NCBI GenBank assembly: GCA_035468985.1
Contig: DATISF010000038.1
Span: forward strand, 31,652 to 95,651
Origin: Thermoanaerobaculia bacterium
Lineage (GTDB): Bacteria > Acidobacteriota > Thermoanaerobaculia > Gp7-AA8
Length of the DNA stretch: 64,000 nt
Reading direction: 5' to 3'
Each line of letters opens with the position of its first letter. Within the stretch, counting starts at the first letter, position 1. The notes under the pieces were generated by a model. The model did not search any database, was not told where the DNA came from, and was given only the letters and a program-made list of their open reading frames with translations. Positions 1 to 8,350 of the stretch are shown one piece after another. The translations under genes and the position numbers were made by a program.

Positions 1-821
1 CTAATCAATCGAGGTTGCGGTCCACCGCGCGAGCCGCTACCCGAAGCACGACCGCCGCGACGACGTCGACTCCATGCCCGCGCGGGCGGATTTGCTCGAA
101 GACGCGGTGAACCAGGCGAACGCCTTCTCTGCAACGTCCGCCGGCGTCGGTGAGGTCCGCGGAACTCTTCGAAGCGAACGTCGTAGCCCGCCGATTGAAG
201 CCGCGAGACCATGCGCTTCGTGTTCTGGATCGGGAGCACCGTGTCTTCGGATCCATGGGAGATGAACATGCGCGGCGCGCCGTGCTGTGACGCCGGAGAG
301 GCGAACCCCGGCGAGAACGCGATGACGTGCGAAAAGAGATCGCCGTTCGTGATCCCGAGTGAGAGTGCGTACGAGGCACCGTCGGAGAAACCGGCGATGG
401 CAAGATGGTGCGGGTCGACGTCGTATCGATTGAACACGTGTGCGAGGGCGCCGTCGATGAAACGGACGTCGGGTCCGTAACCGGTGTGCACGAGGTCCCA
501 CGTCACGCCGCGCGAATCGGGAGCAAGGATCATGAATCCGAACTCGTCGGCGCGCGATCGATAGTTCTGGATGACGCGCTCGGCGTTGCCGCCGGCGCCA
601 TGCAGCATCAGCACGAGCGGCAGTCGCTCCGCCCGCGGCACGTAGAGCAGCGCGTCGCGACCGGTGGCCAGACCGAGCGGAAACATGCCCCCGCCACTCT
701 CCTCCGAATGAGGATGAGGGCGGGCGGTCAGGCGGCCGGGGCCGGGCCCGTCGTCCGCTGCGGACGCGCAGCGCACGGTGGCCGCAAGCGCAATGAGGCG
801 AAGGAGCTCGCGGCGTGTCAC
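1..821 (-). CDS. alpha/beta-hydrolase (phospholipase/carboxylesterase-type esterase) with Tat-like signal; 3' end frameshifted or running off the window
   Basis: Third minus frame, absent from the ORF track because it has no stop in the window. It reads VTRRELLRLIALAATV...LPLVLMLHGAGGN...AIAGFSDGAS...ISHGSEDTVLP...EEFRGPH. The GTG start at 819-821 overlaps the fahA stop (GTGA). After the catalytic His, the plausible C-terminus (TPADVAEKAFAWF, stop at 37) lies in another frame. Confidence 0.55.
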   Translation of the reverse strand, partial: MTRRELLRLIALAATVRCASAADDGPGPGRLTARPHPHSEESGGGMFPLGLATGRDALLYVPRAERLPLVLMLHGAGGNAERVIQNYRSRADEFGFMILAPDSRGVTWDLVHTGYGPDVRFIDGALAHVFNRYDVDPHHLAIAGFSDGASYALSLGITNGDLFSHVIAFSPGFASPASQHGAPRMFISHGSEDTVLPIQNTKRMVSRLQSAGYDVRFEEFRGPHRRRRTLQRRRSPGSPRLRANPPARAWSRRRRGGRASGSGSRGGPQPRLI

Positions 822-2071
822 TCGCCTCTCGCCGGAAGAACGATGCCCCGGCATTCGCCGAAGCCGATGCGCGGCAGGCCGGCGCGCTCGCACCACGCGC
901 GCATGATCACTTCGTCGCCGTCCTCGAGAAAACGGCGTTGCTCGCCGCTCGGCAGGTCGATCGGATCGGTGCCGCGCCAGGTCAGCTCGAGCAGGCATCC
1001 GCGCGATTGCTTGTCGCGGCCGGTGATCGTTCCGCTGGCCAGGAGATCGCCGGCGCACATCCGGCAGCCGTTCGACGTGTGATGGGCGATGAGCTGCGCG
1101 ATCGTCCAGTACATCTCTCGGAAGCTTCCGCGGCTCAAACGCAGCGGCTCGATGTTCTCCCCGCGCATGCGCTGCGAGGCGATCGACACCTCGACCGTGA
1201 TGTCGATGGCGCGATCTTCGTCGAAGTCGAGATACGGCAGCGGCGCCGGATCGCCCTCCGGCCGCTTTGTGGTCGGAACGCGATACGGCTCGAGAGCGTC
1301 GAGCGTCACGATCCACGGCGACATCGACGTGGCGAAATTCTTCGACAGGAACGGGCCGAGGGGCTGGTACTCCCATGTCTGGATGTCGCGGGCGGACCAG
1401 TCGTTCACGAGACAGAGTCCGAAGACGTGCTGCTCCGCGTCGTGAATCGGAATCGGCTCGCCGAGATCATTCCCCCGGCCGATGATCACGCCGACTTCGA
1501 TCTCGTAGTCGAGCCGCTTCGACGCACCGAATTGCGGCGGCCTTGACGACTCATCGCGGGTCTGACCCGATGGGCGGCGGACCGGCGTCCCGCTGATGAC
1601 GACCGTCGACGCGCGCCCGTGATAGCCGACCGGCAGGTACTTGTAATTCGGCAGCAGCGGATTATCGGGGCGGAACATCGACCCGACGTTGGTGGCGTGG
1701 TGAATCGACGCGTAGAAGTCGGTGTAGTCGCCGATCGAGCACGGCGTGAGCATCTCCACACTGGAGCGGGCCAGGAGATGCTTCGCGGCCTGCTCGCGCT
1801 CGGGCGCGTCTTCACGCAGGAGGTCGGTGAGTCGCGCCCTCAGGCGGGCGGTGTTCTCGCGACCGAGCGACATCAGGTCGTTGAGCGTCTCGCGCGTGCA
1901 CGCGAAGTTGTTGATCAACCCGGCGTCGTGGCAGGAAAACAGATCGAGCAGCTCATCGCCGATGGCCACGCAGATGTGCCCTTCCGGCCCGCGCCGGCAG
2001 ACGCCGAACGGCAGGTTCTCGATCGGAAAATCGGAATGACCGTTGGCCGATGACACCCAACTCAAAGCCAT
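818..2071 (-). CDS. fahA: fumarylacetoacetase
   Basis: 417-aa ORF with the N-terminal FPIENLPFGV motif, then PNYKYLPVGYHGRASTVV and C-terminal FAH-fold motifs. It sits in an operon with hpd and hmgA. Confidence 0.95.
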   Translation of the reverse strand: MALSWVSSANGHSDFPIENLPFGVCRRGPEGHICVAIGDELLDLFSCHDAGLINNFACTRETLNDLMSLGRENTARLRARLTDLLREDAPEREQAAKHLLARSSVEMLTPCSIGDYTDFYASIHHATNVGSMFRPDNPLLPNYKYLPVGYHGRASTVVISGTPVRRPSGQTRDESSRPPQFGASKRLDYEIEVGVIIGRGNDLGEPIPIHDAEQHVFGLCLVNDWSARDIQTWEYQPLGPFLSKNFATSMSPWIVTLDALEPYRVPTTKRPEGDPAPLPYLDFDEDRAIDITVEVSIASQRMRGENIEPLRLSRGSFREMYWTIAQLIAHHTSNGCRMCAGDLLASGTITGRDKQSRGCLLELTWRGTDPIDLPSGEQRRFLEDGDEVIMRAWCERAGLPRIGFGECRGIVLPARGE

Positions 2072-2832
2072 CCCAGCTCCCTCAAATCCGCAATGGGCTC
2101 CTCGAACGAGCAGGAGCCGAACGAGACCGCGTATTGCTGGCGTACGCGCGCCAGCTCGTCCGTCGTGACGCGCAGGTCGCGATACCAGATCCCGCCGTCA
2201 TCGAAGCCAAACGCGCGCGCGTTCTCCTCGCGCAGGATCTGCGACGCCGAGCCTGGCAACGCCGCGGCGAGAAACACGTTCACGAACCCGTGCATGAAGC
2301 CCGACGGCGAATCAGGCTCGTCCGTGAACGCTCTTGTGCAGCGAATCGGATGGTGCAGCCCGGCCGTGGCCTTGAACGGCACCTTCCTCTGGCGGCAGAG
2401 GCGGATGAACGTCGCCACTTTCTCGGGAGAGGGAAACGCGTCGGCCGTCACTCCGCCGGTGCGGATCTTCGCTCGAAGTTTGTAGTGGCCGAGGATGTCG
2501 ATCAGATCGAAGTCGCTGATCTCGACGTAGATCATCTGCCCGCTCGCCTGCTGTGCGATCAGATCGATCTGCTCCGCCGAGTCGGCCTTCACCTCGACGG
2601 CGTAGGCGTCCGGAATCGAGTCCGGCGTGGCCAGCACGCTCAACGGAAAATCGGCCGGCACTTCCTTGACCCGCGCGGCGGGAACGACGAAGCGCGCCAG
2701 CGCGAACGCGTACTCCCCGCGGCGGTACTGATCGTATTTGCGAACCGCTTCCTCCATCGGAAGCGACGCCGGCGCAAAGAGTCCGGCGTAATCGATGAGG
2801 GAGTCGAGAAGAACGCGAATGGACTGCTTCAC
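2062..2832 (-). CDS. conserved hypothetical protein embedded between hmgA and fahA
   Basis: Trimmed from the 381-aa track ORF, whose first ~125 aa overlap hmgA out of frame. The GTG at 2830-2832 overlaps the hmgA TGA (GTGA). Its stop overlaps the fahA start by 10 nt. No family motif was recognised by eye. Confidence 0.7.
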
Positions 2833-4133
2833 CGCTGATCCGGCCGGAAATTTTTCTGCAGCCCCTGCCAGCAGCGGTAGTAGTCGCGCTGCAGCTGCGG
2901 TGCGTCCATGGCCACCACGCTCGGCCGCAGCACGAAGCGCGTCTCGAACATGAAGGCCAGAGTGTCGGCGAGAAACTGCGGCTGCAGCTTCGCCGTCGAT
3001 GCGCGATCGAAGGTCGCCGCGTCCGGCCCGTGACCCGACATGCAGTTGTGCAGGCTGCCGCCGCCGGGAACGAATCCCTCCGCCTTGGCGTCGTACACGC
3101 CGAAGATCAGGCCCATGTACTCGTTCATGATGTTGCGGTGGAAGTACGGCGGGCGGAACGTGTGCTCCGCCACCATCCAGCGCGGCGGGAAGATCACGAA
3201 GTCGCAATTCGCCGTCCCGGCAACCTCCGACGGCGAGGTGAGCACGGTGAAGATCGACGGATCAGGATGGTCGAACGACACTGAATTCACGGCGTTGAAG
3301 CGGCGCAGATCGTACTTGCACGGCGCGTAGTTGCCGCGCCAGGCGACGACGTCGAGCGGTGAATGATCGATGCGCGCCGACCACAGATTGCCGAGGAATT
3401 TGGCGACGAGCTCGAAGTCGCCGTCGCGGTCCTCGTGCGCCGCGACCGGCGTCTGAAAATCATGCGGGTTGGCCAGGCCGTTCGCGCCGATGAGTCCCAG
3501 CTCGGGGAGCCGGAACAACTGGCCGAAGTTCTCGCAGATGTAGCCGCGCACCTCGCCGCCCACTTCGACGCGGAACTTCACTCCGCGCGGGATCAGGCCG
3601 ATCTCACCCGGCGCCACCGCGAGAACCCCGAGCTCCGTTCTGATCGTCAGCGGTCCCTGCTGCGGAACGATCAGCAGCTCGCCATCGGCGTCGTAGAAGA
3701 AACGCTCGGTCATCGAGCGATTCGCGGCGTAGACGTGCACGCGGATGCCGCTATGCACCGCCGGATCGCCATTGCCGCAGATGGTGACCACCCCGTCGAT
3801 GAAGTCGACCGGCTGCGCCGGTATCGGAAATGGATCCCATCGCAACTGGTTGGGCGTCCCTTCGCTCAGCACGTCGCCATGGCCGAGTTTCCGGAAGGGC
3901 TCCTGCGTCACCGACGGCCGGATGCGATACAGCCACGAACGCCGGTTCGCGTGCCGCGGCGCGGTGAACGGCGTGCCACTGAGCTGCTCGGCGTAGAGCC
4001 CGTACGCAACGCCCTGCGGCGAGTTCTGTTCCTGCGGCAACGCACCGGGGAGGGATTCGGAGGCGTGGTCGTTGGCGAAGCCGGATTGGTAATCCAGTTT
4101 CGTGCTGACCGGGCGATCGGTGATGCTGGTCAT
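2829..4133 (-). CDS. hmgA: homogentisate 1,2-dioxygenase
   Basis: 434 aa. The N-terminal [26 protein letters not shown]...[14 protein letters not shown] and the remaining sequence are typical of HGD. Confidence 0.97.
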
Positions 4134-4211
4134 GATTCGGGATCCGGGATTCGGGATTCGGGATTCGGGGCCTCGCTTCTACGAATCCCGAATCCCGAAC
4201 ACCGAATCCCG
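4134..4211. repeat. inverted arrays of heptamer GATTCGG (x5) and CGAATCC (x4) filling the whole hpd-hmgA intergenic gap; G3N4 G-quadruplex motif
   Basis: Read directly: gattcgg gatccgg gattcgg gattcgg gattcgg gg, then an 11-nt spacer, then cgaatcc cgaatcc cgaacac cgaatcc cg. Confidence 0.85.
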
Positions 4212-5345
4212 CTAGAGATTACCCCTCTTCGCCTGCTCTGCCTCAATGCTCTCGAACAACGCCCTGAAGTTCCCCTTCCCGAATCCCCGGCTCCCCTTCC
4301 GCTGGATGATTTCGAAGAACAGGGTGGGGCGATCCTCGACCGGCTTCGTGAACAGCTGGAGCAGATAACCCTCCGGATCTCGGTCGACGAGGATGTTCAG
4401 CTCGCGAATCCTTTCGATCGGCTCCTCGATCTCGCCGACGCGCGTCTTCAGCTCTTCGTAGTACGAGGCCGGCGCGCTGAGAAACTCCACCCCGTTCGCC
4501 CTCAGGCGCGTGACGGTCTCAATGATGTCGCCGCACAGCAGCGCGACGTGCTGCACGCCGGGACCGTGATACCAGTCGAGGTACTCGTCGATCTGGCTCT
4601 TCTTCCGTCCCGGTGCGGGCTCGTTGATCGGAAACTTCACGACGCGGTTGTCATCCGACATCACGATCGACATCAGCGCGCTGTACTCGGTCGAGATGTC
4701 CTTGTCGTCGAACGTGATGTAACGCGAGAAGCCCATCACCTTGCTGTACCAGTCGGCCCAGACGTTCATCTTGCCGAGCTCGACGTTGCCGACGATGTGG
4801 TCGACCACGAGCAGCCCGCCGTCGTCACCGCGCACTTCCGCGGCCTGATAGCCGGGCAGAAATACGCCGTTGTATCCGCGTGAGGAGATGAACGTGTGAA
4901 CCGTGTCGCCGTAGGTGTGGACGGCCGCGCGGCGGATGCTTCCGTGCTCGTCGTGGACATCATGCGGCTCGATGGCCGGCTTCGCCCCTCGGCGCACGGC
5001 CTCCGCGAACGCGAAATCGGCGTCTTCGACCTCGAGGGCGATGTCGCAGATGCCGTCGCCATGCTTGCGGATGTGCTCGGCAGCCGGATGATGTGGATTC
5101 AGCGGCGAGGTGATGACGAAGCGGACCTTCCCCTGCGCCAGGACGTACGAGGCCGTCGTGCGGTTGCCGGTCTCGAGCCCGCTGTAGGCGATCTGAGAGA
5201 AGCCGAACGCTTTGCGGTAGTAATACGCCGACTGCTTGGCGTTGCCGGCCCAGAATTCGACATGGTGGATGCGCTTGAGCTTGAGCGGGTTCTCTCCCCG
5301 CCCCTGCTGCTGCCGACCGGTCTCGTTTGCCACGGTCACTGACAT
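4212..5345 (-). CDS. hpd: 4-hydroxyphenylpyruvate dioxygenase
   Basis: 377 aa with [24 protein letters not shown], two VOC modules and a C-terminal [16 protein letters not shown] motif. A GGAGGA Shine-Dalgarno (SD) sequence lies upstream. Confidence 0.95.
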
Positions 5346-5378: not shown

Positions 5379-7865
5379 TTAGATGAAAGACGGATGCCTG
5401 CCGTAGATCTCGGCGGCCAGCCGGTGGATCGATTTCGCCTTCTCGAGCAGCCCCCGGAAACGGGCCGTATCACGGATGGGATCGAGCCACGGATCACGCT
5501 CCAACATGGGGACACAGGCGAAGCCGGGAATGGCCTCCTCGAAAAATTCGAAGCCGGTCTCCGTCTCGCCGCCCAGGATCATGGCCCGGCCGATGTAGTA
5601 CTGCGCCTCCGGATCGCGAATGGCGCGGAGCCGCGATGCCGCGCGCAGCAAATCGCCGCTGTCCTTTGCCAGGGCGCCGCGAAGCGATTCGAGATACGCG
5701 CGGAGCCGGGAGTCGGGAGTGCGCTCGATCGTGTCGCGGATCCGCGTCGCGGCCTCATCCGCTCTTCCGAGCATGATCAGAATCAGAGGCTCGATGTAGC
5801 CGATGTCGCCGCGAGGCTCCACGGAATCGAGGGCCTCTCGATACTTGCCCTGCATGATCCAGGTGTGCACGACGCTGCTGGCGATCTTCGGATCGAGCTC
5901 GCGCGCCCGGCGGTCCGCCGACAGCGACTCGTCCAGCAGTCCGCAGTAGCGGCAGGCCTTCACCAGCGCCACACAGAGCTCCGGGTCGTTCGGACGGATG
6001 CGGATCTGTTCGAGCAGCCGCTGCAGCGATCCCACGGCGCGCCCGAGGTCGATCTCCACCTCGGCGTAGAGGCGCTGGGCGAGCGGTAGATCGGGATTCA
6101 GCTCCAGAGCGCGTTGCAGCGACTGCTCCGCGAGCATCCAGTATTGATCTCCCTCCTCGCTGTACTTCGCCAGCAGCCATTGCACGCGCGCCAGCCGCGC
6201 GTGCGCGGGAGCGAAGGAGGGATCTTCTTCGATCGAACGGAGGTAGAGATCGCGCGCGACCATCCATTCCGTGACGCCGTGTCCCTGATGATTGGCGCGC
6301 AGAAACAGCTCGTACCCGAGAGCGCTCGAGGGAAGGTCGCGCCGAAGATTGCGGCGCTCGCGCTCCGTGGGAGCGGTGCTCAGCGAATTCACGATTCGGC
6401 GCGTCAGGTCGTCCTGGATCTTGAAGATGTCGTGAACCGGCGCCTCGACGCTGTGTGACCAGAGAACGGATCCGCATTGCGCATCCACCAGCTGCGCGTT
6501 GACGCGAAGCTGACCGCCATGCCCCAGCAGCGCGCCGGTGATGATCCAGTCGACCGCAGCCTCCTCGGCGATCACGCGCGGGTCGCTTGCCTCTGCGCTG
6601 AACCGTGCCGCGACGGCACTCGATCGCACGATCACGGAGTCGAGCGCGGAGAGAGACGTGGTGATCGCATCCGGGAGGCTGTTGGCGAGGAAGTCGAACT
6701 CCGGATCGGGTCGCAGCAGACGAAACGGCATCACGATGATGCGCTTCGCCTCGCGCGACTGAACGGCGGCCGCCGCGGCGTGTTCCGCACGTTCCGCCGA
6801 ACGGATGTTTCTCAGATCCGACAACACATCGCGGCCGGTGGGGCGCTGGGACGGAATCCTGGCAAGGCATCGTGTCGTGAGGCGCCGCATCGATTCAGCG
6901 ATGTCGCCGGGTAACGGAGGCGGATCCTCGGTCAGCACCGCTGCGAATGTCGCCAGCGGCGAGGGCCGCTCGAACGGCCGCACTCCCGCCAGCATCTCGT
7001 ACAGCAGGCAGCCGAACGCGAACACGTCGGCGGCGCCCGTCACCGGCTCGCCCCGAATCTGTTCGGGCGACATGTAGCCGACCGTCCCCATCACGGTACC
7101 CGGCATCGTGTGAAACGGCTCGGTCGTGATCGTGGAACCGGCAGGAGCTCCCGACCACATCAATGCCAGACCGAAATCGAGGATCTTCACCCGGCCGTCG
7201 CCAGTGAGAAAGATGTTTTCGGGCTTGAGGTCGCGATGAATTACGCCACGTTCGTGCGCCGCGGACAGCCCTTCTGCAATGGCTGTTGCGATTTCGCAAG
7301 CGGTTTCGACGTTCAGGCGCCCCGCGGCGAGCCGCTCCCCCAGCGTCTCCCCTTCCAGGAGCTCCGTGACGGCATAGAGCATCTGTCCGTCGTTCGAGTA
7401 GTCGTGAATGGCCAGGATGTTGGGATGCGAAAGACGCGCGACCGCTTTCGCTTCCCGTTCGAACCGCGCTGCGGCCGCGGCATCGCGTGCCAGCGCTTCC
7501 GGGAGGACCTTGATCGCAACCTCGCGGTCGAGCCGCGTATCGCGGGCACGGAACACCTCCCCCATTCCTCCGCTGCCGAGGAGGCCGACGATCTCGTAGG
7601 CGCCGAGGCGCGTACCGGGAGTGAGCGTTTGCCGATGATAATTCGGGGGTGCGAGTCCGCATAGTGCTTGTCGAGCCTCGGGAAGGCGGAAACGTCGGCG
7701 CCGCAGCGCGCGCGATGAAGAACTTCGGTTTCCGCGATCTGGTGATCGTCGGACGTGCACCGGAAGATCCCGACGAGAAGTCGGTGTGGTGGGCGGCGGG
7801 GGCGGAGGACGTTCTCCGCGAAGCGCGGCGCGTCGAATCCCTCGGCGAGGCGCTCGCGGATACAA
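5379..7865 (-). CDS. Ser/Thr protein kinase with C-terminal TPR-like region
   Basis: Gly-loop GLLGSGGMGEVF, VAIK, HRDLKPENI and DFGLA, with a helical-repeat C-terminal half. The start is uncertain. The track start (TTG 7865) gives an Arg/Pro-rich leader that overlaps trmJ. An alternative GTG lies at 7760. There is no canonical in-frame start closer to the kinase core. Confidence 0.85.
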   Translation of the reverse strand: MYPRAPRRGIRRAALRGERPPPPPPTTPTSRRDLPVHVRRSPDRGNRSSSSRALRRRRFRLPEARQALCGLAPPNYHRQTLTPGTRLGAYEIVGLLGSGGMGEVFRARDTRLDREVAIKVLPEALARDAAAAARFEREAKAVARLSHPNILAIHDYSNDGQMLYAVTELLEGETLGERLAAGRLNVETACEIATAIAEGLSAAHERGVIHRDLKPENIFLTGDGRVKILDFGLALMWSGAPAGSTITTEPFHTMPGTVMGTVGYMSPEQIRGEPVTGAADVFAFGCLLYEMLAGVRPFERPSPLATFAAVLTEDPPPLPGDIAESMRRLTTRCLARIPSQRPTGRDVLSDLRNIRSAERAEHAAAAAVQSREAKRIIVMPFRLLRPDPEFDFLANSLPDAITTSLSALDSVIVRSSAVAARFSAEASDPRVIAEEAAVDWIITGALLGHGGQLRVNAQLVDAQCGSVLWSHSVEAPVHDIFKIQDDLTRRIVNSLSTAPTERERRNLRRDLPSSALGYELFLRANHQGHGVTEWMVARDLYLRSIEEDPSFAPAHARLARVQWLLAKYSEEGDQYWMLAEQSLQRALELNPDLPLAQRLYAEVEIDLGRAVGSLQRLLEQIRIRPNDPELCVALVKACRYCGLLDESLSADRRARELDPKIASSVVHTWIMQGKYREALDSVEPRGDIGYIEPLILIMLGRADEAATRIRDTIERTPDSRLRAYLESLRGALAKDSGDLLRAASRLRAIRDPEAQYYIGRAMILGGETETGFEFFEEAIPGFACVPMLERDPWLDPIRDTARFRGLLEKAKSIHRLAAEIYGRHPSFI
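7637..7642 (+). promoter_or_regulatory. -10-like GATAAT 6 nt upstream of the trmJ GTG (possible leaderless transcript)
   Basis: GATAAT-tcgggg-GTG, with no spaced SD. Confidence 0.3.
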
Positions 7866-8350
7866 ATCTCAGCGTCGCGACCACAGCGGTACGCGGCCGC
7901 CACGTCTACGAGCAGCTCACGCCCGCCGACCTCTCCCGGCTCGCCCACCAATCCCTCGGCGACCGGGATCGGCTCGCAATCGTGTTCGGACGCGAGACGT
8001 GGGGACTGTCGGGACAGGAGATCGCGATGTGCCAGCGGACCGCGTCGATCCCGACATCGACCGATTACGAGACGATGAATCTGGCGCAGGCCGTGGGCAT
8101 CTTCTGCTATGAGCTCGGCAAGCGGCCCTCGGTTGCCGCGAAAAGCAGCGGCGCCGCGCCGGGCGATCTCATCGCGGCTCTCAATGCACACACGCGCGAG
8201 CTATTGATGGACGTCGGCTTCTTCGGCGACAAGAGTCCCGAGCGGATGTGCGCGGAACTGCAGGCGCTGGCGGGGAAACGGATGTTGACGACGCGGGAGG
8301 CGTCGTTGTTGTTGGCGCTGGTGAGGCAGGTGAAGGAAAAGACACGTTAG
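7649..8350 (+). CDS. trmJ: SPOUT-family tRNA/rRNA 2'-O-methyltransferase (TrmJ-like)
   Basis: RIVLVEPREGGNVGAAARAMKNFG, IVFGRETWGLS and NLAQAV motifs, plus a ~70-aa C-terminal extension as in TrmJ. GTG start. Confidence 0.8.
   Translation: MRVRIVLVEPREGGNVGAAARAMKNFGFRDLVIVGRAPEDPDEKSVWWAAGAEDVLREARRVESLGEALADTNLSVATTAVRGRHVYEQLTPADLSRLAHQSLGDRDRLAIVFGRETWGLSGQEIAMCQRTASIPTSTDYETMNLAQAVGIFCYELGKRPSVAAKSSGAAPGDLIAALNAHTRELLMDVGFFGDKSPERMCAELQALAGKRMLTTREASLLLALVRQVKEKTR

Follow-up and report, generated by a model that had tools for sequence, protein, structure and literature searches.

In the genome of a Thermoanaerobaculia bacterium (assembly GCA_035468985.1), the gene between those for homogentisate 1,2-dioxygenase (hmgA) and fumarylacetoacetase (fahA) probably encodes a maleylacetoacetate cis-trans isomerase (EC 5.2.1.2 activity) that works independently of glutathione. 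The gene lies at positions 2062-2832 of the window, the whole analysed stretch of 64,000 nucleotides of contig DATISF010000038.1 (positions 31,652 to 95,651), and codes for a protein of 256 amino acids (aa; protein P0001); we call it X. We regard X as the best candidate for the isomerase because it is nearly exclusive to fahA-bearing genomes of bacteria without glutathione. The first-pass annotation of the window had already put X forward as a candidate non-orthologous isomerase. This suggestion gained support from the absence of maiA, the gene of the textbook isomerase, from pathway synteny, from the restriction to fahA-bearing genomes, from gene fusions and from an enzyme-like barrel model. 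From these lines of evidence we infer which reaction X catalyses, on which substrate, and what individual residues do.

Within the window, the four genes hpd, hmgA, X and fahA are closely packed on the minus strand at positions 818-5345, and hpd (4-hydroxyphenylpyruvate dioxygenase, HPPD), hmgA and fahA all score above their NCBIfam equivalog cut-offs. The end of hmgA reads ...CAG CGG TGA, and X starts at the GTG of the GTGA (position 2832), overlapping the hmgA stop. X itself ends with ...TGG CTT TGA at 2062 and the ATG of fahA is at 2071, which gives a 10-nt overlap. X is translationally coupled on both sides. Gene order, coordinates and strand as well as both overlaps had been described in the first-pass annotation and were confirmed on reading the sequence. 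The GTG start is consistent with many 256-aa homologues that align across 100% of the length of X. We consider X a real gene because it has at least 7,899 related clusters at 90% identity and 4,697 at 50% identity, and because its AlphaFold2 model reaches a pLDDT of 97.5.

To our knowledge, the isomerase of the homogentisate pathway is known only as a glutathione-dependent glutathione S-transferase (GST). The host genome (G000), which is 98% complete and 2.6% contaminated, gave 0 matches to the maiA profile TIGR01262. Its sole match to the GST_N_3 domain is weak and belongs to a fusion of a glutaredoxin-like protein with pterin-4a-carbinolamine dehydratase; the host genome has no GST-like gene. 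The absence of a GST-like reading frame, noted at first for the operon and the window, holds genome-wide. Glutathione synthetase (gshB, TIGR01380) was not found in the host genome either. Fifty further X-carrying genomes from all phyla of the synteny set described below gave no maiA match at E ≤ 1e-20, and gshB scored above its cut-off in 0 of these 50. This absence of gshB argues against the use of glutathione by X, as far as can be judged from gene content. As a side observation, the glutaredoxin-like (PF05768/PF00462)::pterin-4a-carbinolamine dehydratase (PF01329) fusion of 222 aa is encoded on contig C3 of the host genome; this dehydratase supports phenylalanine hydroxylase, an earlier enzyme that leads into the pathway.

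The distribution of X was determined in evenly drawn samples of three phyla, 423 genomes in total, which were searched with the X profile, TIGR01266 (fahA) and TIGR01262; the genomes at the sample centres (G000, G146 and G147) had been picked as carriers of X. Among the 121 genomes of the host's own phylum, Acidobacteriota, 19 encode fahA and 17 encode X. Sixteen of these X copies are in fahA-bearing genomes and one is in a genome among the 102 without fahA (G060); the only maiA was found in a genome without fahA (G078). In Bacteroidota (151 genomes), fahA is present in 57 and X in 27, all 27 with fahA (X in 0 of 94 genomes without it), and maiA exceeds its cut-off in none. In Planctomycetota (151 genomes), the eight X carriers are exactly the eight fahA carriers, X occurs in 0 of the 143 other genomes, and again maiA exceeds its cut-off in none. 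Taken together, 84 genomes have fahA and 52 have X, which is present in 51 of the 84 fahA-bearing genomes and in 1 of the 339 others, and maiA exceeds its cut-off once. The single X copy in a fahA-free genome carries the substitutions T156A and H161N. While all 16 X-fahA pairs in Acidobacteriota are within about 0.75 kb of each other, in four Planctomycetota genomes the two genes are found on separate contigs or at a distance of over 0.7 Mb. Because of these four unlinked pairs, the association of X with fahA rests on more than adjacency. The sampled group as a whole is without the textbook isomerase, and X tracks fahA within it.

Synteny points in the same direction. One genome per GTDB species was scanned with two family motifs, which yielded 599 confirmed relatives; the best 80 loci were taken, and their neighbours were called by tblastn with the window's four proteins. 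These loci cover about eight phyla, Planctomycetota, Latescibacterota and Verrucomicrobiota among them, with Thermoanaerobaculia, Terriglobia, Blastocatellia, Bryobacterales, Gemmatimonadota, Phycisphaerales, Brocadiaceae and Bacteroidota, and further Latescibacteria, Opitutaceae, Obscuribacterales/Cyanobacteria and one bin labelled Saccharimonadales. In 71 of the 80 loci fahA follows X on the same strand, mostly at less than 150 bp; hmgA is upstream in 37 and hpd is present in 25, and some of the nine loci without fahA stop directly after X, which leaves no basis for a verdict on these. The gene that constantly accompanies X is fahA. The family keeps to fahA and not to hpd, which led us to reject a role as an HmgX-like helper of HPPD. 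The first-pass annotation had named a canonical maiA elsewhere in the genome, together with orthologues mostly outside homogentisate loci, as evidence that would speak against an isomerase. We found neither: no maiA in the 98%-complete genome, and orthologues that adjoin fahA in 71 of 80 loci, follow hmgA in 37 of 80 and occur in fahA-bearing genomes in 51 of 52 cases. In the phylogenetic profile envisaged there, X tracks fahA; maiA, above its cut-off in 1 of 423 genomes, is too rare in the three phyla for X to be set against it.

X also occurs fused to four partners, as found in a search among longer proteins, and its signature residues are kept in all of these fusions. In one of them (P0280, 771 aa), X forms the N-terminal part and fumarylacetoacetase (FAH) follows; the reading frame is intact in two assemblies. 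In six clusters X is the C-terminal part of a protein that begins with acetoacetate-CoA ligase (AACS), and one operon of this type consists of hpd, an hmgA-like gene, an aminotransferase, AACS::X and fahA. Judged by gene content, X is the sole unassigned domain there and the isomerase the sole missing step. If X is the isomerase, this operon would encode the complete conversion of tyrosine to fumarate and acetoacetyl-CoA. In five clusters (P0275-P0279), X is preceded by a CAAX/Rce1-like membrane protease domain, with fahA still overlapping downstream. The fourth, an HmgA::X fusion (P0274), was discounted: its neighbouring genes are fragmented and HmgA is truncated, so that it is probably a frameshift artefact. 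Such a fusion would arise from a single-base error in the assembly where hmgA and X naturally overlap at GTGA. A complex prediction for FahA and X gave a score of 0.00, which speaks neither for nor against binding. Separately, the neighbours of the X::FAH gene are neither hmgA nor hpd but a cysteine-dioxygenase-like gene and one for a type III polyketide synthase.

X belongs to a large family that has remained unannotated. In line with the first-pass annotation, which recognised no family motif, X has zero matches in Pfam or NCBIfam at E ≤ 1. Sequences in the Protein Data Bank (PDB) matched only at chance level in single-sequence and profile searches, and the profile search yielded no aldolase. 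A word-indexed search, capped at 8,000 candidates, found the 90%-identity clusters mentioned above, and those that are named read "hypothetical protein". When 1.84 billion cluster representatives were searched exhaustively with HMMER, the 50% clusters were recovered at E ≤ 1e-3, 1,275 of them at E ≤ 1e-30. None of 59 diverse members had a credible match in Pfam, neither P0001 nor these 59 members matched TIGR01262 or the GST N- and C-terminal domains, and X did not match the DinB and MDMPI_N domains (PF12867, PF11716). A protein search with a language model gave no usable named neighbour, and full-text searching of the available literature found no description of the family.

In an alignment of the 59 members, D14, Y15, E104, K122, R124, K154, T156, H160, H161, N185, R231 and C241 are invariant, and E80, R164, S240, S242 and E245 are almost invariant. 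Many of them fall into the motifs DYAGLxPP, KxRTGG (K122-x-R124-T-G-G), F-K154-A-T156-A-G-L-H160-H161-P-x-R164 and FGSCSFxEP (F-G-S-C241-S-F-x-E245-P). Nine Bacteroidota copies close to fahA retain all signature residues. Three weak-scoring Bacteroidota paralogues away from fahA (G237, G265 and G305), a sister subfamily, retain D14/Y15, E80, E104, K122, K154, N185 and R231 and have lost R124, H160, H161, R164, C241 and E245. Because the copies near fahA keep these six residues whereas the paralogues have lost them, R124, H160, H161, R164, C241 and E245 are, by the alignment, specific to the fahA-linked function.

The AlphaFold2 model of X, calculated from the 59-sequence alignment, has a pLDDT of 97.5, a pTM of 0.93 and alternating strands and helices; X is thus predicted to fold as a (beta/alpha)8 TIM barrel. 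The C-terminal strand ends are the usual catalytic face of TIM barrels, and in the model the invariant residues of X lie at or just past these ends (13-15, 78-82, 100-104, 120-124, 153-156, 177-180 and 235-240). Such a confidently modelled barrel with invariant polar residues at its strand ends supports an enzyme. Foldseek against the PDB gave weak matches to TIM barrels (inosine monophosphate dehydrogenase, deoxyribose-phosphate aldolase (DERA), tagatose-bisphosphate aldolase and homocitrate synthase) with TM scores of 0.3-0.5. In an exhaustive VIA-align search the top six matches were DERAs (Z 14.8-13.1, rmsd 2.6-3.7 Å over 178-198 residues), followed by PdxJ, KGPDC/HPS, triosephosphate isomerase and other barrels at Z 10-12.7. 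A fold search of the ESM Atlas returned unnamed look-alike clusters from Acidobacteriota and Planctomycetota, one of them automatically named "transaldolase family protein". The structural check proposed in the first-pass annotation thus led to a confident TIM barrel with DERA as nearest neighbour in VIA-align; Foldseek TM scores reached only 0.4-0.5.

By its model, X appears DERA-like in shape, and possibly also in its lysine pair. The invariant K122 and K154 sit on consecutive strands of the model, in the motifs AKIRTGG and FKATAGL, which are spaced by 32 residues; in the host's own DERA (TIGR00126; P0298) the corresponding motifs are VKTSTG and VKASGG, with a spacing of 30 residues, and a weak local alignment places the lysines opposite each other. 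X was nevertheless rejected as a member of the DERA sequence family (TIGR00126/PF01791), with no match in Pfam or NCBIfam and a non-significant profile comparison by hhalign. It differs further in its invariant cysteine, its His-His pair and its three arginines, which DERA does not have, and in its context, which is tyrosine catabolism rather than nucleoside catabolism.

Because there is no glutathione, and because X has one invariant cysteine, several cationic residues and a lysine pair, we propose covalent catalysis by Cys241 with help from K122 and K154. The dianionic substrate would be gripped at the C-terminal face of the barrel by five cationic residues that vary little or not at all in the family, R124, R164, R231, H160 and H161. 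The thiolate of Cys241, in the loop after the last strand, would take the role of glutathione and add to C2 of the enone; the C2-C3 bond could then rotate and the thiolate leave. Lys122 and Lys154, which may occupy the positions of the Schiff-base and helper lysines of DERA, might activate the 4-oxo group, either through an iminium or by electrostatics, or stabilise the enolate. The product, fumarylacetoacetate, would pass to the translationally coupled FahA. A fuller picture, to which we give somewhat less credence than to its opposite, is that cis-trans isomerisation has a further, so far overlooked solution at the superfamily level: a DERA-like barrel working with its own cysteine and lysine pair, and with no thiol cofactor, may serve the main tyrosine and phenylalanine catabolic route in those phyla of soil and water that lack glutathione, namely Acidobacteriota, Gemmatimonadota, Planctomycetota and some of the Bacteroidota.

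Known isomerases provide precedents for parts of this scheme. MaiA attaches the thiolate of glutathione to C2 of the cis-enone, allows rotation about the bond and then eliminates the thiolate. MaiA (HmgC, GSTZ1; GST zeta, TIGR01262) is encoded in the same slot of homogentisate operons, between or beside hmgA and fahA, and the same reaction with the same chemistry of thiolate addition, rotation and departure is proposed for X. However, MaiA has a thioredoxin-like GST fold in contrast to the modelled TIM barrel of X and shows no sequence relation to it, and in X carriers without glutathione synthetase the nucleophile would have to be Cys241. Maleate isomerase uses the same mechanism with an enzyme cysteine as nucleophile. 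This maleate cis-trans isomerase of the Asp/Glu racemase superfamily acts without cofactor on a cis-enedioate, as is proposed for X, but its fold and substrate are unrelated to those of X. The DinB superfamily includes thiol-dependent maleylpyruvate isomerases, of which the mycothiol-dependent MDMPI (PF11716) and the L-cysteine-dependent BagL type are, as X would be, non-GST replacements in glutathione-free bacteria. In contrast to X, they are helical bundles with a metal site, and those that have been characterised require a free thiol as cofactor and have maleylpyruvate as their substrate. Glutathione-independent maleylacetoacetate isomerase activity in Gram-positive bacteria was reportedly described by Hagedorn and Chapman (J Bacteriol 1985). 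We know of no gene assigned to that activity.

Several points weigh against the isomerase assignment. It is drawn from context, namely synteny, phyletic pattern, fusions and the pathway hole. Neither X nor maiA is present in 33 of the 84 fahA-bearing genomes; the isomerase step therefore has other solutions or is dispensable, and the argument from a pathway hole becomes weaker. Since genomes within a phylum are related, the counts overstate independence. With maiA above its cut-off in only one of the 423 genomes, none of the three phyla held both X and maiA, and their complementarity in these phyla is confounded with phylogeny. The local alignment that pairs the lysine motifs of X with those of the host's DERA has a score of only 35; in hhalign the second lysine motif is paired, at a non-significant probability of 0.3%. 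The conserved lysine pair would be just as compatible with an aldolase, a decarboxylase or a tautomerase, and we know of no cis-trans isomerase on a DERA-like barrel. Finally, the single MDMPI_N/DinB protein of the host genome, on contig C46, could be the host's isomerase.

The main rival, which we consider unlikely, draws on several of these points: X would perform another FAH-linked reaction, and the isomerisation would be spontaneous or due to another protein. X might be a keto-enol tautomerase working on maleyl- or fumarylacetoacetate, a Schiff-base enzyme with acetoacetate as its substrate, or an enzyme that repairs or detoxifies a reactive side product such as succinylacetoacetate. A fold nearest to class I aldolases, two invariant lysines spaced as in DERA, the repeated fusion to acetoacetate-CoA ligase, a tie to fahA that is tighter than that to hmgA, and the 33 fahA-bearing genomes that do without X and maiA would all agree with it. 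However, the isomerase is the sole textbook step without a gene in these operons, an acetoacetate-consuming activity would hardly be sensible in fusion with a ligase that requires acetoacetate, and an invariant cysteine together with many cationic residues suits a dicarboxylate enone.

Loci without X bear on the next explanation, in which the real isomerase is a DinB/MDMPI_N protein encoded elsewhere and working with an unknown low-molecular-weight thiol, X being a non-catalytic partner or regulator of FahA or unrelated to tyrosine catabolism. Three Acidobacteriota genomes have fahA without X. In one of them (G051), phhA-like, hmgA and fahA genes are followed by genes for a DinB_2 protein and a CoA-transferase; in another (G083), hmgA and fahA are adjacent with nothing between them. 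From its position, the DinB gene of G051 is a candidate thiol-dependent isomerase in the slot of X and a single apparent example of displacement, which also speaks for X as the isomerase; BLAST with its protein found no relatives in the host genome or at the other loci. The host genome does have the MDMPI_N protein mentioned above, but its gene adjoins pyruvate kinase and not the hmg genes, and the X barrel carries some 15 invariant polar residues on its catalytic face, a pattern typical of enzymes. We therefore regard this explanation as improbable.

Least probable of all is that FahA cleaves maleylacetoacetate to maleate and acetoacetate and that X is a maleate isomerase or hydratase; direct cleavage by maleylpyruvate hydrolases is known from some gentisate pathways, X co-occurs with fahA even where unlinked and has an invariant cysteine, the kind of residue that maleate isomerase uses as nucleophile, but FahA scores as a true fumarylacetoacetase equivalog (TIGR01266, 541 bits), and the position of X between hmgA and fahA and its fusion upstream of FAH give the order of an enzyme acting before FAH.

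Several further genes at the analysed loci are listed with the operon in Table 1. Upstream of hpd, on the same strand, the reading frame of a Ser/Thr protein kinase with TPR repeats stops at a distance of 34 bp. At several of the loci (L004, L050, L051, L064, L069, L086, L088, L102 and L117), a divergent HgmA-like cupin takes the place of the canonical hmgA. Its identity to the HmgA of the window is 23-27%, it has a weak HgmA_N match only, and it scores 36 bits with TIGR01015; this cupin probably forms a homogentisate dioxygenase subfamily of its own. At 20 Bacteroidota fahA loci the family hidden Markov model found no X near fahA, and in five of these 20 a gene of about 310 aa with a Flavin_Reduct domain (PF01613) stands beside fahA. 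Several of these five loci also hold hpd and the divergent hmgA-like gene. The product of the Flavin_Reduct gene may be an unrelated partner, or it may stand in for the missing isomerase as a further analogue.

Table 1. Location of the homogentisate operon in the window and of related or neighbouring genes at other loci.
Feature	Size	Location	Strand	Remarks
X, candidate thiol-cofactor-independent maleylacetoacetate isomerase	256 aa	window 2062..2832	-	TIM barrel (predicted)
hmgA, homogentisate 1,2-dioxygenase	434 aa	window 2829..4133	-	TIGR01015 672 bits (cut-off 511); HgmA_N and HgmA_C domains
hpd, 4-hydroxyphenylpyruvate dioxygenase	377 aa	window 4212..5345	-	TIGR01263 456.6 bits (cut-off 277); two Glyoxalase domains (Pfam)
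fahA, fumarylacetoacetase	417 aa	window 818..2071	-	TIGR01266 540.7 bits (cut-off 375); FAA_hydrolase_N and FAA_hydrolase domains
Ser/Thr protein kinase	828-aa ORF	window 5379-7865	-	
X::FAH fusion (P0280)	771 aa	L115:3769-5875		
AACS::X fusion				six clusters
CAAX/Rce1-like protease::X fusion (P0275-P0279)		L123:5001-6812		five clusters
X paralogue		L110:3089-4063		Bacteroidota; barrel core kept
X paralogue		L111:3038-4066		Bacteroidota; barrel core kept
X paralogue		L112:3080-4060		Bacteroidota; barrel core kept
Glutaredoxin-like::pterin-4a-carbinolamine dehydratase fusion	222 aa	L001:1396-2064	+	host genome
MDMPI_N/DinB protein		C46:11211-11621		host genome
DinB_2/DinB protein of G051	203 aa	L120:8124-8732	+	directly after fahA
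Divergent HgmA-like cupin		L117:3565-4785		
Flavin_Reduct gene		L086:6123-7061	-	beside fahA
Flavin_Reduct gene		L088:8801-9697		beside fahA
Flavin_Reduct gene		L092:5622-6461		beside fahA
Flavin_Reduct gene		L093:5086-6021		beside fahA
Flavin_Reduct gene		L094:8336-9271		beside fahA

In conclusion, annotation pipelines leave the isomerase step of tyrosine catabolism as a gap in these bacteria, with maiA in 0 of the 84 fahA-bearing genomes sampled. If X is the maleylacetoacetate isomerase that we propose, several thousand 50% clusters without a Pfam or NCBIfam model would close this gap for about 60% of these genomes. Among the thiol-type cis-trans isomerases that act on ring-cleavage products, X would then be the third family without homology to the others, and the first one built as a TIM barrel. 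Metabolic reconstructions for abundant soil phyla would improve, and the TIM barrel would gain a new catalytic function.

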